From NCBI GenBank assembly GCA_965263035.1, contig OZ253580.1, positions 5,856,001 through 5,920,000 on the forward strand: a DNA stretch of 64,000 nt, given 5' to 3'. The stretch is from Acidobacteriota bacterium (GTDB lineage: Bacteria; Acidobacteriota; UBA6911; RPQK01; JAJDTT01). The notes under the pieces are model-generated. The model was not told the DNA's origin. It saw nothing but the letters and a program-made list of their open reading frames with translations, and did not search any database. The position numbers were made by a program, and so were the translations under genes. Positions 37,529-57,128 of this stretch are shown one piece after another; the first letter of the stretch is position 1, and the number at the start of each line of letters is the position of its first letter.

Positions 37529-38986
37529 ATGCAGGTTCTGGATTGGCTGCTGACGAACACGACGACGGTCTCGGGTTGGATCTGGGGTCTACCCATGATC
37601 GTGCTCCTCTTCGGTACCGGGATCCTCCTGACCGGGATGACCCGTTTTGTCCAGATTCGTCATCTGGCCAGCTCCATCCGGCAGATCTTGAAGGGACCCA
37701 AGGCCGAGACCCGGGACCACCGGCGGTCCCAGGGGGATATCACCCCGTTTCAGGCCCTGATGACCGCGTTGTCGGCGACTGTGGGCAATGGAAACATCGC
37801 CGGCGTCGCGACGGCCATTGCGGCCGGCGGTCCGGGAGCCGCCTTCTGGATGTGGATCACCGCTGTCTTCGGAATGGCCACCAAGTACTCGGAAGCGGTT
37901 CTGGCCATCCTCTTCCGCCGGCGCATGCGGGACGGAACCATGGCCGGCGGGCCCATGTACTACTGTCGAGACGGCGTCAGGGGGCGCCTGGGTTTCGTCT
38001 TGGGGGGCATATTCGCCGTGTGCGGTGCGGCGACCGCCCTTTTTGGAACGGGAAACATGTTCCAGTCCCAGTCCATGGCCATGGCCGTCCGGGAGCAGTT
38101 CGGAACTCCTCAATGGGTGACCGGTCTGATCATGAGCCTGTTGGTCGGCTTGGTGATCATCGGCGGAATACGCCGGATCGGAGCCGTGGCCGAGCGTCTG
38201 GTCCCGGTGATGATCATTTTCTACTTTTCCGGAGCGTTGCTGGTGATCGTCAGCAACATCTCGCTGGTCCCGGACGCCTTCCGGCTGATCGTCGTCTCCG
38301 CCTTCAGTCCTCAGGCGGTCTTTGGGGGAAGCGTGGGCATCGGAGTTCAGCAGGCGATGCGATTCGGAGTGGCTCGCGGCGTCCTCTCCAACGAGTCCGG
38401 TCTGGGCAGTGCGGCCATCGCCCATGGGGCTGCCCGGACTCGATTCCCCGTCGTCCAGGGTGGCATCGCCATGATGGGCACCTTCATCGACACCATCATC
38501 GTTTGCACGCTCACGGCTCTGGCCATTACCGTCTCCGGCGCCTACCGCAGTGCTTCCTTCCTGGTGGAGGACGGTCTCCTGGGGGCCGATCTCACCGTGC
38601 ACGCTTTCAGCGTGGGCATGCCCGATTGGACCGGAGGATGGGGAGGACTGGTCGTCGCCTTCGCCTCCCTGGTCTTCGGGTTCACTACGCTGGTCGGTTG
38701 GAGCTATTACGGTCAGATCTGCTGCGAGTATCTCTTCGGCCTGAAAGTCGTCAAGCCGTACCGGATCCTCTTCGTGGTGCTCCTGTTCGCGGGAGCGCTG
38801 CTCACCGGGCGCTATTCCTCGATCATCACCAACGTGGGGGACATCTGTAACGCCGCAATGGCGTTTCCCAATCTCATCGCGCTGATCTTCCTGAGCCGCC
38901 GGGTCGCGGACGTCACTCGGAAAACCTACGAGGCGGGAGATCCCTACGCGGCTCGCGTGCCCCGGCTGCCTGATCCTATCGGTTAG
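37529..38986 (+). CDS. Sodium:alanine/glycine symporter (AGCS family)
   Basis: ATVGNGNIAGVATAI, GGPGAAFWMW, GGPMYY, SNESGLGS. Confidence 0.93.
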   Translation: MQVLDWLLTNTTTVSGWIWGLPMIVLLFGTGILLTGMTRFVQIRHLASSIRQILKGPKAETRDHRRSQGDITPFQALMTALSATVGNGNIAGVATAIAAGGPGAAFWMWITAVFGMATKYSEAVLAILFRRRMRDGTMAGGPMYYCRDGVRGRLGFVLGGIFAVCGAATALFGTGNMFQSQSMAMAVREQFGTPQWVTGLIMSLLVGLVIIGGIRRIGAVAERLVPVMIIFYFSGALLVIVSNISLVPDAFRLIVVSAFSPQAVFGGSVGIGVQQAMRFGVARGVLSNESGLGSAAIAHGAARTRFPVVQGGIAMMGTFIDTIIVCTLTALAITVSGAYRSASFLVEDGLLGADLTVHAFSVGMPDWTGGWGGLVVAFASLVFGFTTLVGWSYYGQICCEYLFGLKVVKPYRILFVVLLFAGALLTGRYSSIITNVGDICNAAMAFPNLIALIFLSRRVADVTRKTYEAGDPYAARVPRLPDPIG

Positions 38987-39031
38987 TTTCCGGAAGGTGG
39001 ATACACGGGGAGTATCCGGATTCGAGCGACG

Positions 39032-39979
39032 TCACGGGGAAGCGGACCGGTCGGACGCTCGGGGCGGGAGTCCCGCCGCCTCTACGATTTCGGCCACCAA
39101 TTCTTCCTGCCGATAGGCCATGACGTGGACTCCGCTGATCCCGGGAATCTCCCGGGCCTCGCGAATGATCTCGACACAAATCTGCATGCCCTCGCGGCGC
39201 TGCCGGTTACCGGGAACTCCCTTGAGACGGCGGATCACCTCGTCCGGGATCACCACGCCAGGGACGTTGGTCCGGATCCATTCGGCCGCCTTGGCCGATC
39301 GTAGCGGGCCGACACCCAACAGGAAGAAGACCTTCTCGTGCAAGCCCAACTCTCGCGTCGACTTCATGAATTGGCGGAGTCTGGACATGTCAAAGCAGTA
39401 CTGGCTCTGAATGAAATCCGCTCCCGCCTCGATCTTCTTCAGCAGCCGGAAGGGACGATAATCGAAGGGGGGAGCGAAGGGATTGCTGGCCGCCCCGAGA
39501 AAAATCCGGGGGTTGGATTCCAGCTTCCTGCCGCTCAGGAAGCGGCCCTCGTCCCGGAGCAGGCAGGCCGTTCTCAAAAGATTCATGCAATCCAGATCGA
39601 AGACCGGCTTGGCGTCCGGATGGTCGCCCACGCCCACGCCGTCGCCCGTCAGGCACAGCACGTTCCGGATCCCCAGTGCGGCGGCTCCCAGCAGGTCTCC
39701 CTGAATGGCGATCCGGTTCCGGTCCCGGCAGGCGACCTGAAGCACCGGCTCGTAGCCCGCCTTCACCAGCAAGGAACAGACGGCCACGCTGGACATGTGG
39801 ACATGGGCGCCGGAAGCATCCGTGGCGTTGATGGCATCACACACCGGGGCCAGGACCAGCGCCCTTTCGTAGACCGAATTCGGGTCTGCGGTGTCGGGGG
39901 AATTGATCTCGGCGGTGACGGCGAATCCGCCCGAGCGAAGTACCCGCTCCAGCCTGGAGCCGGACTTCATGGGGTTCAC
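39032..39979 (-). CDS. metF: Methylenetetrahydrofolate reductase
   Basis: VTAEI, INATD, CRDRNRIAIQGDLLGA, LTGD, KKIEAGADFIQSQ; GTGA overlap with the upstream gene. Confidence 0.92.
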   Translation of the reverse strand: MNPMKSGSRLERVLRSGGFAVTAEINSPDTADPNSVYERALVLAPVCDAINATDASGAHVHMSSVAVCSLLVKAGYEPVLQVACRDRNRIAIQGDLLGAAALGIRNVLCLTGDGVGVGDHPDAKPVFDLDCMNLLRTACLLRDEGRFLSGRKLESNPRIFLGAASNPFAPPFDYRPFRLLKKIEAGADFIQSQYCFDMSRLRQFMKSTRELGLHEKVFFLLGVGPLRSAKAAEWIRTNVPGVVIPDEVIRRLKGVPGNRQRREGMQICVEIIREAREIPGISGVHVMAYRQEELVAEIVEAAGLPPRASDRSASP

Positions 39980-40428
39980 TGCTTCCAATGGGATCCCGCG
40001 TTTCCGGCGTCCGAGAAGTGGTTGACCCAGGCGGACGATCCCTGGCGGTCGTGACTCAGCGGAGGAAGCACGTGGAGGATCTCGGACCCAAAATGGGGCA
40101 TCTTTCTGGATCGTTCCCAAGCCTGCACCCAGACGCACGGCATCTCGGGAACCACCTCGCAATGTCCGTTCGGCCGCACCCCGCCACAGGGGCCGTTGCG
40201 GAGATTCTTGGGACAGGTCATGGGACAGGTCATCCCGGTGCTGTGCAGGACGCACTGTCCGCACATGCGACAGTCGAACACGGCGCCTTTGGTCAATCGC
40301 TCCGCCGGAATCAGGAGCCGTTCGATCCGGCTCCCGGGTTTGAGCGACGACCGGAACCAACCAAGAATTTTTAGACTAATCAGATAGATCGACTCCAATA
40401 CCTGAGGATGGTTCTGAAGGAATCTCAC
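39976..40428 (-). CDS. MetV-like (MTHFR C-terminal domain) Fe-S/Zn protein
   Basis: CRMCGQC..CPMTCPKNLRNGPCGG..CEV..CVW; coupled to metF. Confidence 0.85.
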   Translation of the reverse strand: MRFLQNHPQVLESIYLISLKILGWFRSSLKPGSRIERLLIPAERLTKGAVFDCRMCGQCVLHSTGMTCPMTCPKNLRNGPCGGVRPNGHCEVVPEMPCVWVQAWERSRKMPHFGSEILHVLPPLSHDRQGSSAWVNHFSDAGNAGSHWKQ

Positions 40429-40447
40429 AGTTTTCCCCTGCGCTTGT

Positions 40448-42085
40448 TCAGCCTGTCGGACCCGAATCCAGTACCGCCGGCATGGCCTTGAACAGACATC
40501 CTTCCACAAAAATATCGAAGAAGTCTTCGGTCGTCTCCAACTCGATGTGTTCAATACGCCTGACCATCTCCTCGATGCGACGCCTGAGGGTCCGGCTGGT
40601 CAACATGAGTGTGGCTCCCTCAAGCGCGCTGTTTCCCACCTTGGCTACGCGGCCTTGGGGAAGCGGGGGGATGAACCCGATGGACATGGCGTTGTCCACG
40701 TTGACGTAGTTGGCGAAGCCTCCCGCCAGATAGAGCCGCTTGAGCTGGACCGGCGAGACCCCGTACTTCCTCAGAACGATCCACTGACCCGAGTAGTTGG
40801 CGGCCTTGGCCTGGGCCAGCGCGCTGATATCGGCTCGGGAGAGGAAAATCCCGCGTTCGCCCGGAATGGTGAAGCGGTCCAGCCCGCCTGCAAGAACACC
40901 GAGATAGTTCATGTCCTCGGTCCGGAGCAACTCTGCCAGGAGGTCGATCAAGCCCGAACCGCAGATCCCCTCCGGCGCGGCTCCACCGATGGTCTTCCAA
41001 ATCACCGCTCCGTTCCGGAGTTCGACCGACTCGATGGCGCCTTCGTAGCCGGGCATGCCATAGGTGATCTCGCCCCCCTCGAAGGCCGGTCCGGCGGGGC
41101 AAGAGGCGGCCATCATGCCATGGCGATTGCCGACCACCACTTCCGTGTTGGTTCCCACATCCACCAACATGACCACGTCTTCTTCCTCATCCATGCCGAC
41201 GGCAAGAAGGTCGGCGGCCACGTCGGCGCCGACATGGGAACCGATCAGCGGCCCCCCGTAAACGTTGGCGCCAGGGTGGACCCTGAGTCCCAGATCCCGA
41301 GCCTGGAAATTCAGGACAGTGTCGGCCCTTTCGCCCCGTTCCATTTCCAGTTGGGTGCTGGACTGGTACGGTTTCTCGCCGATGGACTGGATGTCGAGAC
41401 CGAAAAACAGGTCCCGCATGGCAGCGTTGCCCACGATCACGACCTCGTAGATCTGGCGCCGTGGAACCCCCGCCATCCGACGCAGTTCGCGGATCTCATA
41501 GTTGAGTCCGGCAATCACCGAGTTCTGAAGCTCCCCGTGAAAAGATCCACCGTCATAGGAAATCCGGCGCATGATGTCGCTGCCGCCGAATCTCTGCGGA
41601 TTTTCGAACGAACCGGTGTACAGGATGCCTCCGCTTCGCAGATCCACCAGATTGAAGGCGATGGTCGTCGTCCCCAGGTCCACGGCAAGGCCGTAGATCC
41701 CCCCCCGATAGGAGTCGATGACGTTGCCGTCATAGACGACATCGGTTCCCTGAAGCCGAGTCATTGGCTCGATGGGAGCTTGGCGGCGAACGGCTTGGGT
41801 AAGGATCCTGGGACGGCGGCGCAACAGGGCAAATTCAATGTTGGCGTTCGCGTCCAGAACCCGCGCTTGACAGGCAAGCCGATAGTCGTCGCGAAGAAAC
41901 TGCTCGGCCTCGGTGCCTGGGGTCAGTGCTTCCCCGCCCCGGAGGATCTGGACAATACACTCGTGACACTCGCCACTACGGCGACAGGAGGTGGGGACCC
42001 GCACCCGAAGGTCGTCGGCATAGTCGAAAACGGTCTTGCCGGGCACAAGATCCAGCTTGCGATTACCGTAATTGAGGGGCGACAT
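40448..42085 (-). CDS. ASKHA-type reductive activator of corrinoid enzymes (RACE/DUF4445) with N-terminal 2Fe-2S domain
   Basis: SCRRSGECHEC..RLACQ, DLGTTT, ENPQRFGGSDIMRRI, DVGTNTE, AGPAFEG, GICGSG, AGGFANY, GNSALEG. Confidence 0.92.
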   Translation of the reverse strand: MSPLNYGNRKLDLVPGKTVFDYADDLRVRVPTSCRRSGECHECIVQILRGGEALTPGTEAEQFLRDDYRLACQARVLDANANIEFALLRRRPRILTQAVRRQAPIEPMTRLQGTDVVYDGNVIDSYRGGIYGLAVDLGTTTIAFNLVDLRSGGILYTGSFENPQRFGGSDIMRRISYDGGSFHGELQNSVIAGLNYEIRELRRMAGVPRRQIYEVVIVGNAAMRDLFFGLDIQSIGEKPYQSSTQLEMERGERADTVLNFQARDLGLRVHPGANVYGGPLIGSHVGADVAADLLAVGMDEEEDVVMLVDVGTNTEVVVGNRHGMMAASCPAGPAFEGGEITYGMPGYEGAIESVELRNGAVIWKTIGGAAPEGICGSGLIDLLAELLRTEDMNYLGVLAGGLDRFTIPGERGIFLSRADISALAQAKAANYSGQWIVLRKYGVSPVQLKRLYLAGGFANYVNVDNAMSIGFIPPLPQGRVAKVGNSALEGATLMLTSRTLRRRIEEMVRRIEHIELETTEDFFDIFVEGCLFKAMPAVLDSGPTG

Positions 42086-42198
42086 GAAAGCGCGCTCCCA
42101 ACGCCAGCGACCCACCGGGGCGATTGCAAGTACGTCTAGTGAAAGTGGTCACGGAATCCGGTCAGCTCACAGCCCGCGGCAAACGCCGTGCCGGAAGG

Positions 42199-42465
42199 CT
42201 AAGCTTCCCAGGCATCCCGATAATCCAGATCGTCACTTCCGGTACAGAGTGGCAACCCTGCAGAACCATGACGCCTGGACTGGTTTCGACACCCGAAACG
42301 GGCGGTGCAGCAATCTTGGGCATTCTTGTAGGGACACCGCCACTTGGATACGAGATTGGCGTTTTCGCCGATCTGCCGGTAGATCTCCCAAAGGCGATCC
42401 AGACTGGCCTTGAGTTTGGCCTTGTCAACAGGTTGGAAGTTCCCGGGGGCGTCTGTTCGCGGCAC
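42199..42465 (-). CDS. Small Cys-rich hypothetical protein (~88 aa)
   Basis: Co-oriented ORF filling the gap in the operon; RCPYKN..CCTARFGCRNQ..C..LDYRDAWE. GTG start inferred. Confidence 0.65.
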   Translation of the reverse strand: MPRTDAPGNFQPVDKAKLKASLDRLWEIYRQIGENANLVSKWRCPYKNAQDCCTARFGCRNQSRRHGSAGLPLCTGSDDLDYRDAWEA

Positions 42466-42490
42466 TGGACTATATCCGACGAGGAGTATC

Positions 42491-43258
42491 TTAAGGGTAT
42501 TCGGAGGCGGCTTGCTGCGGCGCTTTCTGCCCGACACCCAGGAGTTCCTTGGCCTTTTCCACACAGTCAATGGCGTCCTTGCCATAACGGTCGGCCCCCA
42601 TGTCGTCCGCGAACTCCTGAGTCACGGGAGCTCCACCCACCATCGTGCTGACGACATCTGTCAGACCCGCATCTTCCAAGGCCTGGATGGTTCTTCCCAT
42701 GTTGGGCATGGTCGTCGTCAGCAGGGCGGACATTCCGACGACCTGGGGCTCGTATTCGAATACCGAATCGACAAACTCGTCCGGCTTGGTATCGACACCC
42801 AGATCATGCACGACGAAACCGGCTCCCCGGAGCATCATGATGCACAGATTCTTTCCGATATCGTGGAGATCTCCCTTGACGGTTCCCATGACCACGGTGC
42901 CCATGGGTGGAATATCGGAAGCGGACAGTATGGGCTCGATATGCTTCATCCCGGCCTTCATGGCGCGGGCTGAAATCAGAACCTCGGGAACGAAAATGAT
43001 GTTGTCCCGGAATTTGATCCCGACCAGAGCCATTCCGGCAATCAGTCCGTCATCCAGCAGCGTGTTGGCGGCGTAACCGGTGTCCAGAGCCTCCCTGGTC
43101 AGGCGGTCGACTTCATGCTGGTTACCCACGATCAAGGCATAGCTGATGTTTTGCATCAAAGGATCGGCGTTCCGAAAGAGCGACTTGATGTGCTCTCGCT
43201 CGTGCCGGCGCGCAACGTGGCGGAGTTCCCTTGTCAGGCCCTCGTTAATATTAGACAT
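42491..43258 (-). CDS. Corrinoid (B12-binding) methyl-carrier protein
   Basis: Cap domain FVPEVLISARAMK and GTVKGDLHDIGKN (DxHxxG)..DLGVD..SALLTTTM..MVGGAPVT. Confidence 0.95.
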   Translation of the reverse strand: MSNINEGLTRELRHVARRHEREHIKSLFRNADPLMQNISYALIVGNQHEVDRLTREALDTGYAANTLLDDGLIAGMALVGIKFRDNIIFVPEVLISARAMKAGMKHIEPILSASDIPPMGTVVMGTVKGDLHDIGKNLCIMMLRGAGFVVHDLGVDTKPDEFVDSVFEYEPQVVGMSALLTTTMPNMGRTIQALEDAGLTDVVSTMVGGAPVTQEFADDMGADRYGKDAIDCVEKAKELLGVGQKAPQQAASEYP

Positions 43259-43382
43259 GCTGGAATTGCAGCCAGATCAACTAATTTGACAGACGCCAAG
43301 ACGACTTAAGAGAGAAATTAAACCTTTTCGGGTCGAGGTTTGTCAAACCGGACGGCGGACGGGACAGGGCTCTGAGAAAGCT

Positions 43383-44429
43383 TTACGCCCCGCTCAACCT
43401 CCCAGCCCGCCACGCCTGGATGTAGTTCATGCAGAAATCGTCCCGGCCCAAAAGCATGTCCCGAGCCAACCCGACTTTCTCCGAATTCAGGTCCAGGGCG
43501 AAGACGTCCTGCACGCGATTCTGGACAGGATCCATGATGGCGGCATCGATGCCGACTTCCAGACTCAGGTGAATGAAGGTCGCGTTGATGAGCTTCCGAT
43601 TGGGAAGGCCGAAGGAGACATTGCTCAACCCGCCGGTGACGTGGACCTCGTTTCCGAAGATTCTCCGCACCTCCCTTACCGCATCCAGAAAATGATGTCC
43701 GTAATCGGGGGAGACCGAAATCGGAAAGACCAGACAGTCGATGTACACATCGTCCAGAGCGAATCCTTGCCTCACGACCGCCTCCATGACCTGTTCCACG
43801 TTGGAAATCCGGTCGTCCGCGTCTTCCGGCATTCCCTCTTTCCCGGCGGCCGTCACAATCATGCGTGCATTGTTTTCCTGAACCAGATCCAGGGTTTCCA
43901 ACCGCTCCAGAGCCACGGAATTGACCAGAGGGCGGTGCGATCTGCGGGTGTGGGCTGCCAACCCCGCCGCGATGATCTCCGAATTTGAAGAATCGATGCT
44001 GAGCGGCAACGCCGTCATCTCCTGGACTTGTTGCACGAGCCAAGTCATGGCTCGCTTCTGAACACCGAGATCATAGGAGACCTCGTCCACGTTCAGATCA
44101 AGGAAATGGGCTCCGGTGGCTTCCTGGCGCCGGACCTCGAACTCGATGTAGGCGGTCCCCTCCGCCTCCTCTGCCGGATCGCCGCCGAGTCCCTTCTGGA
44201 CCGCAATCATGAAATGCTTGATTTGACCTTGCTCGTAGGGCTGCGTCTTCTTGAAACTCTCCGGCACCCGGAGATACCGGCGGTCACCCGGACTGGGATC
44301 GAAGAAGACGGCTTCCGCTCCGTCGGGCGCCGTCGCAGTCCGCTTGCCATTACGCAAGACGATGCGAGTCGTATGAATGTTCTCTCCGATGATGATCAGA
44401 CCGCCGGGTTCATGGATGAGCTTTGACAT
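43383..44429 (-). CDS. Methyltetrahydrofolate:corrinoid methyltransferase (AcsE/MT-II, pterin-binding fold)
   Basis: IIGENI, FLDLNVD, LSIDS, VNSV, YIDCLVFP, GGLSNVSFGLPNRKLIN, AIMDP. Confidence 0.88.
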   Translation of the reverse strand: MSKLIHEPGGLIIIGENIHTTRIVLRNGKRTATAPDGAEAVFFDPSPGDRRYLRVPESFKKTQPYEQGQIKHFMIAVQKGLGGDPAEEAEGTAYIEFEVRRQEATGAHFLDLNVDEVSYDLGVQKRAMTWLVQQVQEMTALPLSIDSSNSEIIAAGLAAHTRRSHRPLVNSVALERLETLDLVQENNARMIVTAAGKEGMPEDADDRISNVEQVMEAVVRQGFALDDVYIDCLVFPISVSPDYGHHFLDAVREVRRIFGNEVHVTGGLSNVSFGLPNRKLINATFIHLSLEVGIDAAIMDPVQNRVQDVFALDLNSEKVGLARDMLLGRDDFCMNYIQAWRAGRLSGA

Positions 44430-44449
44430 GGAACACCCGGTTGGCGCCT

Positions 44450-45487
44450 TCAGGCGTAGTGATCCCGGCACCAGTCCTTGACCGCCCGTGGAATCTCGAT
44501 GAGGTTTTCCAGTTTGGTAGCCAGGGGAATGGCACACTCAGGGGAAATCATATCGACGCCCGCCGCCATGCATTCGTTGACGGCCGCTCGGACCTCCTCC
44601 GGCCCTCGGCTATAGAGGAGTTCCGGGTTGTTCAGATTCCCCACCAGGCGTATCCGTCCGGCAGCGATCTTCATGGCATCGGCAGGGTTGTTTTTGGAGT
44701 CGAAGTGGAAACAAGCCATTCCGGATTGAGCGATATAGTCCAGGCGATCCAACGTCTGGCCGCAGATATGGAGAATGAGCGGACACGGGATTCGCTCGCA
44801 CATCTCCTTGTGGATCTCCAACAGGAATCTACGATAGTACTCACCGCTCACCAGATCTCCGGTGGCGTGATCCGGAAAGGTCAGGGCATCGGCGCCCGCT
44901 TCGATCTGGGCCAGGGAAAAAGCAACCGAGATTTCCTTGAGCCGATCCAGACAGAGCATGGTCATCCCTGGGTCATCAATGCTCATGAGCAGAAACTTCT
45001 CCACGCCGAAGACATGATAGGCTAATGTCCAAGGCCCCATGGCTTTGCCGATGACGGCCACCTCGTCACCGTATTCCTTCTTCAGGATCCGGAGCGACTC
45101 CAGGACGCAGACATTGTCCGGATGGGTCAGGAAATCCTTCGGCATATGGATGTCGTCCGGCCCCGACCAGATCGGGTTGTTCATCCGTACCGTGGGCCAG
45201 TTGTCCTTGATCTCCCACTGCATGTCACATCCCAGGGCGGAAGACTCCTGGATGATGGTGAACACCGGCATGATGCAATCAAAGCCCAACTGGGTGTATC
45301 CCGTTGCCGCCAAGCGCGCGTTGAGTTCGGCGTCACGGCACGCGTCCGGAAACGGTGCGTCCACCATGTCCATGAGTTCCACGGTGGCGATATTGGTCGG
45401 ATTGCACACCGGGGGCCGATCCACCGGCTTGCCGGCCAGCGCGTTCATCACTCGCTCTCTGGGGGTCATGGTCTCCACGAATGGCAT
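44450..45487 (-). CDS. MtaA/CmuA-family methyltransferase (URO-D fold)
   Basis: MTPRERV..G..VDRPPV, ESSALG, GPWTLA, EAGAD, LHICG, VGNL, SPEC (HxC...C Zn motif). Confidence 0.88.
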   Translation of the reverse strand: MPFVETMTPRERVMNALAGKPVDRPPVCNPTNIATVELMDMVDAPFPDACRDAELNARLAATGYTQLGFDCIMPVFTIIQESSALGCDMQWEIKDNWPTVRMNNPIWSGPDDIHMPKDFLTHPDNVCVLESLRILKKEYGDEVAVIGKAMGPWTLAYHVFGVEKFLLMSIDDPGMTMLCLDRLKEISVAFSLAQIEAGADALTFPDHATGDLVSGEYYRRFLLEIHKEMCERIPCPLILHICGQTLDRLDYIAQSGMACFHFDSKNNPADAMKIAAGRIRLVGNLNNPELLYSRGPEEVRAAVNECMAAGVDMISPECAIPLATKLENLIEIPRAVKDWCRDHYA

Positions 45488-45505
45488 TCCATCTGCTCCT
45501 TGGGA

Positions 45506-46180
45506 TCAGAGAGGGCTGAAGCCCGCGGTTCCGGTGGTGAGCTGACCTCTTTGGGCCGAACTCTCCAACATGTTCTCCACGGCGCTGATGTTGCGGGAGA
45601 AGGGGAACAGGAGCCGGACCAACGGCTCGTGACGGTGTCCACAGTTGAAGGAGACACCGAGGTTTCCCGCCTGCTCCATCTCGCCGTACTTTCGAAAGCC
45701 CATCGTAATGGCACGCAGGCGAAAAGGAGCGTTACGCGCCTCGCCCTGAGCCGAGACCTGGTAGACCCAACGATTCTCGGAGTGGTGAGGCGTGAGCTTC
45801 AAAGTCAATGGACTACGGGTATCCCGAAGCACCATCTCGCCCGTGGCGTGTGAATAATTCGGATCCTTTTCCACCGCTTGCGGCATCAGAAACTTGAGCG
45901 GTCTCGAATGAAGTACTCCACAGGGAAATCGAACCTGGTTCCTGCTGCCCTCTACGGCAACCAAGCCACCCAAATTGCAAAGTTGGTCTCGGATTCTTTC
46001 GATCCGGTCCTCGACCCCCGCCTTCTTGCCGTAGGTCCAGACGGTCAACAGACCGTCTTTCTCGTATAGACCGACGGTAATGTCGTGGAAATGCGGGTCC
46101 ATGGAAACCAGTTCGACGCAGCGCCCGTAGCGCTCGATCATCTCCTCCACCTGGGAAAGCTGACCTTCCCTACCCTTCAT
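45506..46180 (-). CDS. Hypothetical protein with a duplicated FxCGxxH motif
   Basis: Operonic ORF (ATGA overlap with the upstream gene); VRFPCGVLH and VSFNCGHRH. Confidence 0.75.
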   Translation of the reverse strand: MKGREGQLSQVEEMIERYGRCVELVSMDPHFHDITVGLYEKDGLLTVWTYGKKAGVEDRIERIRDQLCNLGGLVAVEGSRNQVRFPCGVLHSRPLKFLMPQAVEKDPNYSHATGEMVLRDTRSPLTLKLTPHHSENRWVYQVSAQGEARNAPFRLRAITMGFRKYGEMEQAGNLGVSFNCGHRHEPLVRLLFPFSRNISAVENMLESSAQRGQLTTGTAGFSPL

Positions 46181-46554
46181 GGCGAATTGCTCCCGGATGT
46201 TGCAGGACCCGGATCGTCACAGATCCAGCGCTCAAGTGCGCCAGGCCGCTCATCCCGCTGACCAGCACGGTGGAGCCGACAAATCCGGGCCGCCAAGTCC
46301 TCAGGAAGTCCTTGATTGAATCGACCCGCCCAAGCTTGGGCAAGCTGGCGTGGATCTCCCGAGTCCTGACCCTGATCCACCCACTCCCACCCCTCCAAAT
46401 AGGCATCGCTCCCCATGCTCCCTTCGAACATGGCAACGGCGTCCACCGCTTCCTGGAACCGGTGGTCCAGCGGTTCCGAAAATCGATCGCCACCGGATTC
46501 GACCTGTACCTGGACGGGGATCTCTTTCCAGTAGAGGACTCTGATTCTGGCCAC
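46177..46554 (-). CDS. 'Virulence factor' family (CvfC/Virulence_fact-like) small protein
   Basis: YWKEIPVQV..RFQEAVDAVAM..DAYLEGW; GTG start after GGGAG. From memory this family is often encoded near metF and B12 genes. Confidence 0.75.
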   Translation of the reverse strand: MARIRVLYWKEIPVQVQVESGGDRFSEPLDHRFQEAVDAVAMFEGSMGSDAYLEGWEWVDQGQDSGDPRQLAQAWAGRFNQGLPEDLAARICRLHRAGQRDERPGALERWICDDPGPATSGSNSP

Positions 46555-46693
46555 GATTTGGACTCCCACGAGAGGCGATCCAGCCTGGACTACCGTCAGA
46601 ACCGGATCTACGGGACGTCTCCCCTTGCCAAGTCGGTTTCGGCGACCATTCCTCGGGGGGCGAAGGTGACCTGCTCCGTCCCACGGGAAAGTC

Positions 46694-46722
46694 AGGCTAC
46701 ACCAGCGTGGACACCCTGTAAA
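46694..46722 (-). promoter_or_regulatory. Candidate sigma70 promoter of the methyltransferase operon
   Basis: Minus strand reads TTTACA-N17-TAGCCT, about 140 bp upstream of the first start codon. Confidence 0.45.
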
Positions 46723-46833
46723 GCCCGCCGGCGCCGGATACTCCCGGCCATGTGGCTGGTGCTGCGCGGTCCTTTCACCGACTCCGATACGCCTTTCTTG
46801 ACTTGGTCGGAGCCACTTCCGCAAAATGTCGTC

Positions 46834-47691
46834 ATGGATGTCTACGAGGAAATTGTCCGGCTCCGGCGTGAAGGACGTTCGGGCGCAGTGGCCACCATTG
46901 TCCGGCGCCTTGGGAGCACTCCCCGGAAAGACCATGCCAAGATGCTGGTCCGCCAGGATGGAAGCTTCGTGGGCACCGTCGGCGGCGGCTGTGTCGAAGC
47001 CGAAGTCTGGCGCCATGCCAACCAGGTCATGGAATCGGGCCGGGCCACACTGGTCAAATATGAATTGACCCAGGAAGATACGGAAAACGAGGGCTTGGTC
47101 TGCGGCGGAACCGTGGAGATATTCATCGAGCCCGTGATTCCCGAGCCCACGTTGATTCTCATGGGAGCCGGACACTTGGGGCAGGCCATCGCCGCGGCTG
47201 CCGACAAGGTCGGTTTTCAGGTCGTAGTCCTGGATGACCGGGAGGCTTTCTCCAATCGCCAACGATTTCCCCGCGCCCGGGAGGTGATCGTAGACTCCTT
47301 CCGGACGGGTCTCTCCCAGACATCGGTGACTATCAACACCTTCATCCTGGTCATCACTCGGGGTCACAGCCACGACCACGCCGCAATGGAACAGGCCATT
47401 CAGACCGAGGCCCGATACGTGGGACTGGTGGGCAGTCGCCGAAAGATCCAGCTGATCGTCGATAGCCTTCTGCAACAGGGATATCCGCCCGATCTGTTCG
47501 AGAACCTCTATGCTCCCATTGGACTGGCCATCGGATCTGAGACTCCGGAAGAGATCGCAATCAGCGTCGTCGGTGAACTGATCGCCATCCGCAAGGGCGT
47601 GCATGAGCGGAACCGAAAACAACGTTTCGTTCGGAAAATCCTGGAGCGCGCAAGAACAAAGCAAGCTCCAGCCCAGGTTGCTGCCGGCTAG
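46834..47691 (+). CDS. XdhC/CoxI-family molybdoenzyme maturation factor
   Basis: GSTPR..AKM..GTVGGGCVEAE, CGG, MGAGH, TRGHSHD, YVGLVGSRRK, APIGLAIGSETPEEIA. Confidence 0.92.
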   Translation: MDVYEEIVRLRREGRSGAVATIVRRLGSTPRKDHAKMLVRQDGSFVGTVGGGCVEAEVWRHANQVMESGRATLVKYELTQEDTENEGLVCGGTVEIFIEPVIPEPTLILMGAGHLGQAIAAAADKVGFQVVVLDDREAFSNRQRFPRAREVIVDSFRTGLSQTSVTINTFILVITRGHSHDHAAMEQAIQTEARYVGLVGSRRKIQLIVDSLLQQGYPPDLFENLYAPIGLAIGSETPEEIAISVVGELIAIRKGVHERNRKQRFVRKILERARTKQAPAQVAAG

Positions 47692-48909
47692 TACCCAATA
47701 ACATGTAATTGTTCGTATACTATGGTGGGAGGCTGGAGGACTCGGAAGGAGGAGTTCTCATGGCACCACGCTATCGTGTCACGCTCACTGTGGAAGAGCG
47801 CTCAGAATTGAAGGCCTTGACCCGGGCCGCGACCAAGACCACCGGCAAGCGGTTCCTGTACGCGCGGGCTCTGTTGTTGTGCGACCGCGGGCCGGAAGGG
47901 CCGGGATGGACCGTGGCCCGGGTGGCCGAGGCGCTGGGCGTCTCAACCCGCACGATCGAGCACTTGAAACGGCGGTTTGTGGAGCAGGGTTTGGAGTTCG
48001 CCTTGGAGCGCAAGCGGCGGGTGCGGCCGCCGCGGAAAGTGATCTTCGACGGCGCGTTCGAGGCTCGCCTGGTCGCCTTGGCCTGCTCTCCGGCCCCGCC
48101 AGGACGGAAGCGCTGGACCCTGCGCCTGCTGGCGGAGAAAGTAGTGGAACTGGGCTGGGTCGAGCGGGTGTCGGTGATGACGGTGCAGCGGACGCTAAAA
48201 AAAACCAACTGCAGCCTCATCGGAAGAAGTATTGGCGGATCCCGCCCCGGGGCAGCGCCGCATTCGTAGCCTGCATGGAGGACGTTTTAGAAGTCTATGC
48301 CCGTCCGTACGACCCCCGTCGTCCGGTGGTCTGCATGGACGAGACCAACAAGCAGTTGATCGGAGAAGTGCGGGAGCCTTTGCCGGTCGCGCCCGGCCAG
48401 CCGGAGCGAGTCGAGCATGAGTATGTGCGCAACGGGGTCGCGCAGATCTTCCTGGAGGTGGAGCCACTGACCGGCCGCTGCCATGTGGAGGCGACCGAGC
48501 GGCGCACGCGACAGGATTGGGCCCGGTGGATCGAGGGCATGTTGGAGAGGCGATACCCGGAGGCCGAGCGGGTGGTCCTGGTCTTGGACAACCTGAACAC
48601 GCACGGAATCGAATCGCTGTACGCGACCTACGAGCCTCGACACGCTCGCCAACTGGCACAACGACTGGAAATCCACTACACGCCGAAGCACGGCAGTTGG
48701 CTCAACATTGCAGAAATCGAATTGAGCGCGCTGTGCGGACAATGCCTGGACCGCCGGATTCCAAGCCTGGCCGGGATGCAACGTGAGATCGGGGCTTGGG
48801 TTGCGGATCGGAACCAACGGCAAACCGAGATCGACTGGCAGTTCAAGACGGAGGATGCACGGATCAAGCTGAAGAGCCTGTATCCACAACTTTAAGTGTT
48901 ACGGGGTAC
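47691..48909 (+). mobile_element. IS630-family insertion sequence, apparently complete
   Basis: Terminal inverted repeats GTACCCAATAACA / GTACCCCGTAACA; TA duplication at 47689-47690 and 48910-48911. Confidence 0.92.
47760..48895 (+). CDS. IS630 transposase, two ORFs joined by a probable -1 frameshift at the A8 run 48197-48204
   Basis: HTH ORF (RWTLRLLA..TLKK) plus DDE ORF (CMDE, LDNLNTH, YTPKHGSWLNIAEIE); -1 slippage gives LKKNQLQPH. Confidence 0.9.
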
Positions 48910-56039: not shown

Positions 56040-57128
56040 TCAAGCGAACGTGGACTTGTTGAACACGTAGGGCATCTTGGACGGATCCCCTCCGTAATTC
56101 CCTTCCAGGACGTCGATGATTCCCTGGGCGGTTCGACCCGCCATGCCCAGGTCCGGATCTCCCGAAAGCCGCGTCCGCCGTCCGCCGCTGGCGAAGTGGT
56201 GAAAGATGCGCAATCGGTCTTCCAGATCCGGATCTCTCATAGGGGAGTCGGCCGGAAGCGGCTCCTGCTCGAATACATCCAAGGCGGCGCCGGCGATCTG
56301 ACTCTTGCGGAGGGCCCTGACCAACGCGTCAGGGTCCACCACAGGACCCCGGGAGGTGTTGATGAGATAGGCTGTCGGTTTCATCAACTCCAGGGCCTCG
56401 TCATCGATGAGATGGTGAGTTTCGGGCGTGAGGGGAACGTGCAGGCTGATGTAATCAGCCTGGCGAAAAGCCTCGTCGAAAGATGTCCAGCGAATAGTGG
56501 AACGTCGAATGGACAGGCCCTGTTCGTACTTGAAGTCGAAGAGCGCCTGCACCGACTCCACAAAGGACCGGTCCTCCGGCATAAGGTCGCAACAGAGGAT
56601 GTCGGTGTCCAATCCGGTGCATTTGAGTAGAAAGGCCCGCCCGATGCGTCCGGTTCCGATCACGGCGACCGTCTTGCCCGTGACCTCATCCCCCAGGAAC
56701 GGAACATAGGGATGCCATGTCTCCCATCGGCTTTCCCGGACCAGCCGCTCACTCGGGTAGAGCTTTCGCGAAACGCAACCCATTATGAAAAAGGCAAATT
56801 CGGCCGTCGCATCGGTCAGTACCACGGCCGTATGGGTGTAGGGCACCCGGTACTTGCGGGCTGCCGCTTCGTCGATATTGTCGACACCCACGGCAATCTG
56901 GGACACCACCTTCAAGGTCCCCTGACCCGCCTGAAACACCTCCTCATCGATGGGGTCGCGCAACGTGGTGATGAGCCCGTCGATTCCCGACTTGACCTTC
57001 TCCACGATCAGCGCCTTCGGCGGAGGCTCGACGTGGGAATACACTTCGACCTGGTATCCCCGGTCCGTCAGGCGCTTGAACCCTTCTTCTCCAATGTCAC
57101 AGGTTGCGTAGATGCGATAACTCTTCAT
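56040..57128 (-). CDS. D-isomer-specific 2-hydroxyacid dehydrogenase (glyoxylate/hydroxypyruvate reductase-like)
   Basis: VGVDNID, GTGRIG, SLHVPLTPETHHLI, INTSRG, LDVFEQEP. Confidence 0.92.
   Translation of the reverse strand: MKSYRIYATCDIGEEGFKRLTDRGYQVEVYSHVEPPPKALIVEKVKSGIDGLITTLRDPIDEEVFQAGQGTLKVVSQIAVGVDNIDEAAARKYRVPYTHTAVVLTDATAEFAFFIMGCVSRKLYPSERLVRESRWETWHPYVPFLGDEVTGKTVAVIGTGRIGRAFLLKCTGLDTDILCCDLMPEDRSFVESVQALFDFKYEQGLSIRRSTIRWTSFDEAFRQADYISLHVPLTPETHHLIDDEALELMKPTAYLINTSRGPVVDPDALVRALRKSQIAGAALDVFEQEPLPADSPMRDPDLEDRLRIFHHFASGGRRTRLSGDPDLGMAGRTAQGIIDVLEGNYGGDPSKMPYVFNKSTFA

Follow-up and report, generated by a model that had tools for sequence, protein, structure and literature searches.

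A split cobalamin methyltransferase operon in Acidobacteriota that pairs an MtaA-like enzyme with a conserved orphan protein

Background

The O-demethylases of acetogens are built from four parts, a URO-D-fold methyltransferase (MT-I), a corrinoid protein, a tetrahydrofolate (THF) methyltransferase and an activase of the RACE type. In the cmu pathway of aerobic methylotrophs, where CmuA shares a family model with the enzyme at the centre of this work, a corrinoid methyl transfer to THF is followed by an oxidation of the MetF type. We have analysed a cluster of nine closely set genes, positions 39032-46554 on the minus strand of a 64,000-nucleotide stretch of acidobacterial DNA (the window), that encodes an MtaA/CmuA-family methyltransferase (UROD), a pterin-binding methyltransferase (MeTr), a corrinoid protein (CoP), an activase (RACE), the two subunits of a methylene-THF reductase (MetV and MetF) and three further proteins, VirF, Hyp224 and SmCys. 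A first-pass annotation, made without database searches, had placed all nine genes where we also find them, and had read them as a complete corrinoid methyl-transfer module that is coupled to THF by MetVF and in which the partner of the MtaA/CmuA-type enzyme was left unnamed, a reading that the family assignments uphold.

The closest described systems come from roseobacters. According to Price 2018 (PMC5764234), the methionine synthase of Phaeobacter comes in three parts, one protein each of PF02574 and PF00809 plus a corrinoid protein, and is reactivated by a RamA-like protein with Fer2 and DUF4445 domains and by DUF1638. Mausz 2025 (PMC12478193) reports that in Ruegeria the corrinoid protein MtgC and the bidirectional MtgD serve methionine synthesis together with MtgE and glycine betaine demethylation together with the MttB-family enzyme MtgB, that a MetF paralogue (MetF2) adjoins mtgD and that most carriers are without MetH; such split plug-in B12 methyltransferases are presented there as a recently recognised major route of methyl flow in the ocean. 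Another group of relatives is formed by the type 1 mlp clusters, for which Kountz and Balskus (PMC10418091) propose demethylation of sulfur or selenium compounds and a corrinoid route to methionine. These authors tie the His-Cys-Cys zinc ligands to S and Se rather than to O substrates and describe O-demethylases with a swap at one Cys ligand or at both of them; Chloroflexi, Acidobacteria and Dehalococcoidia are not mentioned in PMC10418091.

Results

The backbone of the operon, VirF-MetV-MetF-MeTr-RACE together with CoP, is made up of the same genes as the split methionine synthase or Mtg hub. The system is thus a variant of the split B12 methyltransferase hub and not a categorically new pathway, and the earlier designation of the block as an undescribed system has to be given up; what is new is the Hyp224-UROD module and its substrate partner. 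With the hub of Phaeobacter inhibens and Ruegeria pomeroyi it has in common a separate corrinoid protein, a pterin methyltransferase, a PF02574 homocysteine methyltransferase and an activase with Fer2 and ASKHA domains, as well as a MetF gene beside the pterin methyltransferase and carriers that often are without MetH. When plasmid records were searched by tblastn with VirF, two replicons emerged on which a Virulence_fact gene likewise adjoins MetV-MetF. One is Azoarcus pAZKH, where glycine betaine transport genes surround a series that runs from a corrinoid protein through DUF1638, "virulence factor", MetV, MetF and a pterin methyltransferase to an ASKHA protein. On the other, pSymB of Sinorhizobium meliloti, "virulence factor" heads a row that continues with MetV, MetF and MeTr, then a small gene and an ASKHA protein; DUF1638, a gene of the MttB family and one for a cobalamin-binding protein are nearby. 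The plug-in enzyme here is however the URO-D-fold protein UROD together with Hyp224, and not an MttB-family MtgB, there is no DUF1638, the activase belongs to a subfamily with a SmCys domain, and the carriers are Acidobacteriota and Dehalococcoidia/SAR202, neither of which is mentioned in Mausz 2025 (PMC12478193).

UROD passes the family cut-off of TIGR01463 (MtaA/CmuA; 266.5 against 235.4 bits) and stays under the equivalog cut-offs for MtaA (NF040654, 225.3 against 400) and MtbA (NF041608, 200.9 against 600). Its best solved relative is MtaA (4AY7, E 3.9e-48), in which the HxC and C ligands are aligned (LHICG and PECA), and the zinc ligands H240, C242 and C318 are invariant in 25/25 orthologues at a mean column identity of 81%, which bears out the HxC...C zinc motif that had been read from the sequence. 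Across phyla the enzyme is 65-85% identical. The operon has no second URO-D gene; elsewhere in the genome there are two more URO-D matches, HemE and a weak paralogue. A tblastn search over 72,556 plasmid records returned nothing above 29% identity and no match annotated as cmuA. While no recognisable substrate-specific enzyme had been seen in the cluster, UROD, with Hyp224, is itself the candidate. An MtaA-like paralogue of 42% identity is found in another Dehalococcoidia genome (locus L101, G371:C40:1543-3157) beside a corrinoid protein of 46% identity and without Hyp224; the extended match contains stop codons.

Hyp224 and SmCys have no Pfam or NCBIfam match, but the alignments of their orthologues show that both are nonetheless conserved genes. 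For Hyp224, 245 relatives were found at E <= 0.001 among 393 candidates, and only 246 in 1.84 billion representatives, all of them short stand-alone proteins. The residues C21, C87, H91, C180 and H184 are invariant in 23/23 aligned sequences, and the two CGxxH motifs that had been noticed at the outset (CGVLH at 87-91 and CGHRH at 180-184) are thereby confirmed. The AlphaFold2 model (predicted local distance difference test, pLDDT, 85.4; below 50 in the tail at 212-224) is made of two alpha/beta halves that resemble each other and in both of which a CxxxH motif comes right ahead of a helix, and the conserved tail is predicted to be disordered. No fold match was obtained with Foldseek on the PDB (best E 0.024, template modelling score about 0.2) or with VIA-align against 48,161 chains (best Z 5.7 over half a domain, within the range of noise), profile searches of PDB sequences gave no match for Hyp224, VirF or SmCys, the ESM Atlas gave no usable Hyp224 match, and hhalign finds no resemblance between Hyp224 and DUF1638 (probability 0.2). 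From the model it is plausible that Hyp224 carries a Cys/His metal site and a tail for binding of a partner, and the partner is predicted to be the MtaA-like enzyme UROD. A distant subfamily is 29-35% identical, with one cluster member labelled Rhodospirillales and another Terriglobia; its members (alignment A5, P0264 and others) are without C21 and end in RGVLAAPSAQ instead of RGQLTTGTAGF, the tail being conserved inside each subfamily and not between them. In the literature, supplements not covered, we found no paper on Hyp224, nor any in which Acidobacteriota or Chloroflexota are described as having a split MetH combined with an MtaA-like gene.

The other two proteins that had been listed as uncharacterised can be assigned to the activase by gene fusion, so that Hyp224 is the one orphan left of the three. 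A 760-aa protein of Terrarubrum flagellatum has the domain order Virulence_fact(8-92)-Fer2-RACo_linker-Raco_middle-RACo_C_ter and adjoins a B12-binding protein and DUF1638, and VirF is a neighbour of MetV-MetF-MeTr-ASKHA genes in Azoarcus and S. meliloti. This fusion surfaced through the plasmid search; a word-index search for longer VirF fusions gave none, the VirF model (pLDDT 71) had no Foldseek match, the ESM Atlas returned Virulence_fact clusters only, and PF13769 is mentioned in no paper of the literature searched. SmCys has four invariant Cys in 16/16 sequences, in the motif RCPY..CTA.FGC..C.G.D.L.YR.AW, and its profile matches 479 longer proteins at E <= 0.001. Among the 120 longer matches listed, the majority have a length of 630-640 aa and combine Fer2 with Raco_middle and RACo_C_ter; several of these come from Candidatus Poribacteria, and one match is fused to a corrinoid protein. 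One such protein, P0133, corresponds to SmCys over residues 2-78 (45%) and to the RACE of the window over residues 92-629 (55%). The 112-aa gene at the equivalent position in S. meliloti shows no similarity to SmCys by hhalign. Because both occur fused to RACE, VirF and SmCys are predicted to act with it in corrinoid activation.

One genome per species was scanned, which gave 292 confirmed Hyp224 loci, and the counts that follow rest on the 80 that were fetched, 26 labelled Acidobacteriota and 54 labelled Chloroflexota. Within 10 kb of Hyp224 we found UROD in 78 of them, CoP in 68, SmCys in 66, VirF in 63 and RACE in 46, several of the misses falling on short contigs. The unit Hyp224-UROD-CoP-SmCys-RACE is thus conserved, while of the nine-gene block that was first described MeTr, MetV and MetF depend on the lineage: they are present in 25/26, 23/26 and 22/26 of the Acidobacteriota-labelled loci against 7/54, 0/54 and 0/54 of the Chloroflexota-labelled ones. 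The reverse holds for a PF02574 homocysteine methyltransferase, present in 0/26 and 52/54, respectively, and placed between VirF and Hyp224. Identities between the proteins of the window and the Chloroflexota copies are unusually high for UROD (median 76%) and CoP (71%), followed by RACE (64%), Hyp224 (56%), SmCys (55%) and VirF (51%).

The distribution of Hyp224 is patchy in both phyla. It occurs in 12/301 Acidobacteriota genomes, confined to two families of one order, and in 7/251 Dehalococcoidia genomes, and exactly these 7 also have SmCys and the UROD orthologue. With the distant subfamily 34 metagenome loci were found, 18 of them at least 4 kb long. In 15 of these 18 UROD (65-74% identical) comes immediately after Hyp224, one of the 15 (L128) having a closer relative (54%), and CoP, SmCys and RACE come next, often with MetF, MetV, MeTr and VirF; the remaining 3 contigs end just past Hyp224. 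The carriers are thus Acidobacteriota, Dehalococcoidia/SAR202 and metagenome contigs with Rhodospirillales-labelled relatives. The patchy distribution, and the fact that the distant subfamily keeps the set, indicate that Hyp224-UROD-CoP-SmCys-RACE is a conserved and horizontally shared unit.

A gene for a D-2-hydroxyacid dehydrogenase is a repeated neighbour of the cluster in Dehalococcoidia, in some Acidobacteriota and in metagenome loci (L047:8497-9501, L108:6966-7910). Its best scores, for phosphoglycerate dehydrogenase or glyoxylate reductase, fall short of either cut-off, and the window has a more weakly related gene (29% identity) about 10 kb off, at 56040-57128 (-). Directly upstream of the distant-subfamily Hyp224 there is in two metagenome loci a divergent GntR/FCD regulator (L114:7109-7858 (-), L120:7071-7922 (-)), which suggests small-carboxylate control in those bacteria. 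Taken together, dehydrogenase and regulator are only a lead towards a carboxylic acid as substrate or effector.

The window belongs to a 6.2-Mb single-contig genome that is 97% complete. By tblastn this genome has a single CoP, MeTr, RACE, MetV and MetF, all in the operon. The absence of MttB, MtaB and MetH-type genes from the block had been noted before, and for MttB and MetH it extends to the whole genome, where there were 0 matches each to the MttB family and to DUF1638. Full-length MetH (TIGR02082) is found in 0/7 genomes of the host family, the best match in the host being partial (E 2.0e-47). A Wood-Ljungdahl role for MetVF is rejected, as no CdhC/acetyl-CoA synthase was found in the genome. 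Concerning metE, the genome has five core-MetE-like paralogues (Meth_synt_2 only, 347-383 aa; e.g. G000:C1:5747280-5748323), all under the NCBIfam cut-offs for methionine synthase. There are also three stand-alone PF02574 proteins, and one of these (G000:C1:6072240-6073112), 170 kb from the operon, is 64% identical to the in-cluster enzyme of Dehalococcoidia; it reaches 260.3 bits with PRK07534, under the cut-off of 338, and its neighbours, a cytochrome-c-motif protein and an unrelated gene, are uninformative. Homocysteine, one of the partners that had been considered for UROD, thus gets an enzyme of its own, orthologous to the in-cluster homocysteine methyltransferase of Dehalococcoidia.

Five divergent Dehalococcoidia carriers, three of them with genomes of 1.3-1.4 Mb, have full MetH in 0/5, and their sole homocysteine methyltransferase and B12-domain matches are in the cluster, which here is the compact set VirF-homocysteine methyltransferase-Hyp224-UROD-CoP-SmCys-RACE, with a 2-hydroxyacid dehydrogenase next in line. 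As a route to methionine, Price 2021 has discussed a core MetE that receives its methyl group from a corrinoid protein. Both this route and a split MetH would depend on the operon, because each needs a methyl-corrinoid and the only corrinoid protein is encoded there. The lack of MetH and the single copies of CoP, MeTr and MetF make the operon likely to be the methionine synthase of the host as well, and judged from gene content it is likely required for methionine synthesis.

Stretches of the locus are present in 20 runs from 10 studies, of which 4 are labelled RNA and 2 of those 4 "sponge metagenome", and near-identical loci (Hyp224 identity 86-98%) are labelled "Acidobacteriota bacterium". 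In the RNA-labelled libraries one contig of 8020 bases covers 38533-46552 (X15) and another of 6657 bases covers 40024-46680, and position 46680 is a contig end in RNA libraries of two studies (X16, X20). The depth in X15 drops to 3.7 over 46586-46896, between the operon and the divergent xdhC, from about 49 on each side. Contig ends and depth are compatible with one transcription unit that begins about 125 bases upstream of VirF. Scans for promoters and terminators gave nothing beyond shuffled controls.

Discussion

We hypothesize, with a probability of about one half, that the operon encodes a split modular cobalamin methyltransferase hub, likely acting as methionine synthase too, in which UROD and Hyp224 load CoP from a compound of the methyl-thioether type. 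Homology and context make CoP the methyl carrier. On the donor side the His-Cys-Cys zinc of UROD and Hyp224 would catalyse R-S-CH3 + Co(I) -> R-SH + CH3-Co(III), where R-S-CH3 could be methanethiol, dimethyl sulfide, methylmercaptopropionate or a methylthio hydroxy or oxo acid. The methyl group could then leave by two ways, either to homocysteine, with the distal homocysteine methyltransferase taking it from CH3-CoP to form methionine as MtgE does in the roseobacter hub, or through MeTr and MetVF into the one-carbon (C1) pool; as far as can be judged from their families, MeTr would exchange methyl groups between CoP and THF and MetVF would interconvert methyl-THF and methylene-THF. RACE, its split-off domain SmCys and the accessory protein VirF are expected to return Co(II) to Co(I) at the expense of ATP.

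A role of UROD on the donor side is favoured by several observations. Complete MetH is found in 4/5 of the sister-family Acidobacteriota carriers and in 3/5 of the Chloroflexota carriers examined, and since several carriers thus have MetH in addition, the module is not a mere substitute for it. In 2/5 Chloroflexota genomes with a cluster that lacks MeTr there is no pterin-binding match anywhere, and for lack of that domain UROD is the only visible loader of CoP in these two genomes, with the homocysteine methyltransferase as the only visible exit. The compact set of Dehalococcoidia and the invariant His-Cys-Cys ligands of the S/Se type point in the same direction.

Several points weigh against this reading. 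The direction of the UROD step is one that we infer, and corrinoid methyl transfers are reversible. His-Cys-Cys ligands are also found in CmuA, which makes a halide a possible substrate. Among the conserved neighbours of the cluster there is neither a transporter nor a catabolic gene, and the cluster's presence in genomes of 1.3-1.4 Mb looks more like housekeeping than like use of an environmental substrate. In the host, the five core-MetE-like paralogues could be real homocysteine methylases, and the distal homocysteine methyltransferase is tied to the operon by orthology of its sequence only, and not by neighbourhood. No riboswitch that would link the operon to methionine or B12 was found at window positions 38500-48000 (E <= 1) or in 7 related loci (gathering score). 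The contigs of the RNA-labelled runs, finally, show presence only and are no proof of a single transcript, as RNA libraries may contain DNA.

The same genes can be read in other ways. In its boldest form the donor-side reading makes Hyp224 and UROD a new two-protein B12-dependent S-demethylase that passes the methyl group directly on to homocysteine or THF by way of a single corrinoid protein and has been shared by transfer, which we put forward as a tentative and rather doubtful proposal. The flow could also be biosynthetic, from MetVF and MeTr to CoP and on through UROD to a thiol acceptor, which would make UROD an MtaA-like MT-II and not a demethylase; the thiol in question might be a low-molecular-weight cofactor or a Hyp224 cysteine, or else sulfide, which would yield methanethiol. 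The closest solved and curated relatives of UROD are indeed acceptor-side methylcobamide:coenzyme M methyltransferases, MetVF and MeTr are in the same operon here, and the recurrent 2-hydroxyacid dehydrogenase could supply C1 units derived from serine, but with MeTr missing nearby in 47/54 of the Chloroflexota-labelled clusters, no pterin-binding domain at all in two of the five genomes and no conserved genes for biosynthesis of a thiol cofactor in the vicinity, we consider this direction unlikely. Improbable, in our view, is a purely housekeeping function, where the operon would be a split methionine synthase only and UROD and Hyp224 would serve the upkeep of the cofactor, for instance by priming or rescuing CoP with a methyl group, a part comparable to the need of Phaeobacter for DUF1638. 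Retention of the cluster in genomes of 1.3-1.4 Mb without MetH would fit, and so would the lack of DUF1638 and the unusual conservation of UROD; against that stand the carriers that have full MetH as well, the complete zinc thiol-activating site, which upkeep does not need, and the dissimilarity between Hyp224 and DUF1638.

The remaining two readings replace the substrate. If methyl halides were used, UROD would act as the methyltransferase domain of CmuA, loading CoP from chloro-, bromo- or iodomethane, and MeTr and MetF would act as CmuB and MetF2. UROD passes the MtaA/CmuA family model, the combination of UROD, CoP, pterin methyltransferase and MetF resembles the layout of the cmu pathway, and the carriers are marine or sponge-associated according to their run labels. 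The roseobacter MtgC has moreover been placed near CmuA (Mausz 2025, PMC12478193). A homocysteine methyltransferase inside the cluster suits the metabolism of sulfur amino acids better, however, neither folD nor purU is conserved beside it and the plasmid records gave no match to a cmuA, which leaves a slim chance for halides. Salvage of methyl selenides is still less probable; here UROD would demethylate methylselenol or dimethylselenide and pass the methyl group to homocysteine or THF, as has been proposed for type 1 mlp clusters. The His-Cys-Cys ligands would suit both Se and S (Kountz and Balskus, PMC10418091) and the genome has a SelD match of 297.5 bits (cut-off 125), but one Mlp instead of at least two, together with a THF methyltransferase, puts the cluster outside the type 1 mlp definition, and no selenium genes are conserved beside it. 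The SelD match (G000:C1:556908-557825) lies within an open frame of 756 aa, where selenophosphate synthetase seemingly is fused to another domain.

With MtaA, MtbA, MtsA and MtpA of Methanosarcina the module shares the URO-D fold, the TIGR01463 model, the aligned HxC...C ligands, a small corrinoid protein and an ATP-dependent activase; it differs in that UROD falls under the equivalog cut-offs, the carriers are bacteria and the coupling is to THF and homocysteine and not to methanogenesis. The four-part layout of the acetogen O-demethylases is common to both systems, with His-Cys-Cys invariant in UROD. Corrinoid methyl transfer to THF and a subsequent MetF-type oxidation are shared with CdmBCA of Acetobacterium dehalogenans, as it is described in PMC13222342. 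In distinction from the chloromethane pathways, there is no fused CmuA-type protein here and no cmuA-like match in plasmid records. The type 1 mlp clusters, which are found in non-methanogens, likewise combine MtaA-like His-Cys-Cys proteins with a corrinoid protein and with a bacterial RACE, but as described by Kountz and Balskus (PMC10418091) they lack a THF methyltransferase, contain two or three Mlps each and come from obligate anaerobes, mostly Firmicutes. Clusters of the type in the window have a single Mlp, MeTr and/or a homocysteine methyltransferase, and Hyp224; in the operon itself, with its one URO-D gene, there is no pair of Mlp2 and Mlp3, and the THF methyltransferase MeTr is present.

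The plug-in design of the hub is hereby extended to a different class of enzyme and to the abundant uncultured SAR202/Dehalococcoidia and sponge-associated Acidobacteriota. Through gene fusion, Virulence_fact and the small four-Cys protein, both of them orphan families, are assigned to the RACE activase, and one real unknown is singled out, as Hyp224 has no recognisable fold and yet is a near-constant companion of an exceptionally conserved MtaA-like enzyme. Should the substrate be a methylated sulfur compound, the module would represent an unrecognised sink for it and a new requirement for B12 in these bacteria. If the two proteins are a true S-demethylase, they would fill the place of a missing bacterial enzyme for demethylation of e.g. 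methanethiol or methylmercaptopropionate, and open a route from methyl-sulfur to methionine and C1 units in marine bacteria, among them SAR202/Dehalococcoidia and sponge-associated Acidobacteriota. With its few, clearly delimited parts, the module lends itself to reconstitution.

Features of the locus and minor observations

The genes of the operon are listed in Table 1. Seven of the family calls made at first sight are backed by Pfam and NCBIfam. Two junctions with overlapping start and stop codons had been reported, of which one stands (VirF stop and Hyp224 start, 4 bases), the other gaps being 5-124 bases. Gene starts were refined by comparison of orthologues, which makes SmCys 88 aa and not 128. 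MeTr reaches 207 bits with PRK07535, under the cut-off of 259, and the best NCBIfam rows for CoP are MtgC, pyl_corrinoid and MtbC, all under their cut-offs; an MTHFR-domain protein adjoins the MetV (PF12225) protein, which identifies the reductase as of MetVF type.

Table 1. Genes and probable leader region of the operon, with positions in the window.
Feature	Position	Strand	Description
VirF	46177-46554	-	125-aa Virulence_fact (PF13769) protein, Pfam 56.6 bits; GTG start set by orthologues
Hyp224	45506-46180	-	224-aa orphan; one further invariant Cys besides two CGxxH motifs; C-terminal tail conserved and predicted disordered
UROD	44450-45487	-	MtaA/CmuA-family corrinoid methyltransferase with His-Cys-Cys zinc site; URO-D / TIGR01463 266.5 bits
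MeTr	43383-44429	-	pterin-binding methyl-THF:corrinoid methyltransferase (MtgD/AcsE-like); Pterin_bind (PF00809) 78.2 bits
CoP	42491-43258	-	corrinoid protein; B12-binding_2 cap (PF02607) and B12-binding (PF02310)
SmCys	42199-42465	-	88-aa four-Cys protein; split-off N-terminal domain of RACE subfamily
RACE	40448-42085	-	RamA-like ATP-dependent corrinoid reductive activase; RACo_C_ter 223.4, Raco_middle 134.3, N-terminal 2Fe-2S Fer2 33.8 bits
MetV	39976-40428	-	small Cys-rich subunit of MetVF-type methylene-THF reductase; DUF5981/PF12225 94.8 bits; start via orthologues
MetF	39032-39970	-	methylene-THF reductase; MTHFR (PF02219) 104.9 bits
Probable 5' leader / promoter-proximal region	46555-46680	-	weak hint from ends of RNA-library contigs

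In many Chloroflexota loci Hyp224 and UROD are 1-5 kb apart through inserted genes (L056:10704-11669, L066:12145-12483, L048:13171-13686), among which are a DUF4268 protein and a pair of DUF433 and DUF5615 proteins that resembles a toxin-antitoxin module, and selfish insertions thus appear to be tolerated inside these clusters. The only mobile element seen beside the operon of the window is a transposase of the IS630 type at 47709-48895 (+), directly after xdhC, which is divided into two overlapping open reading frames, first the helix-turn-helix part and then DDE_3 (87.5 bits).

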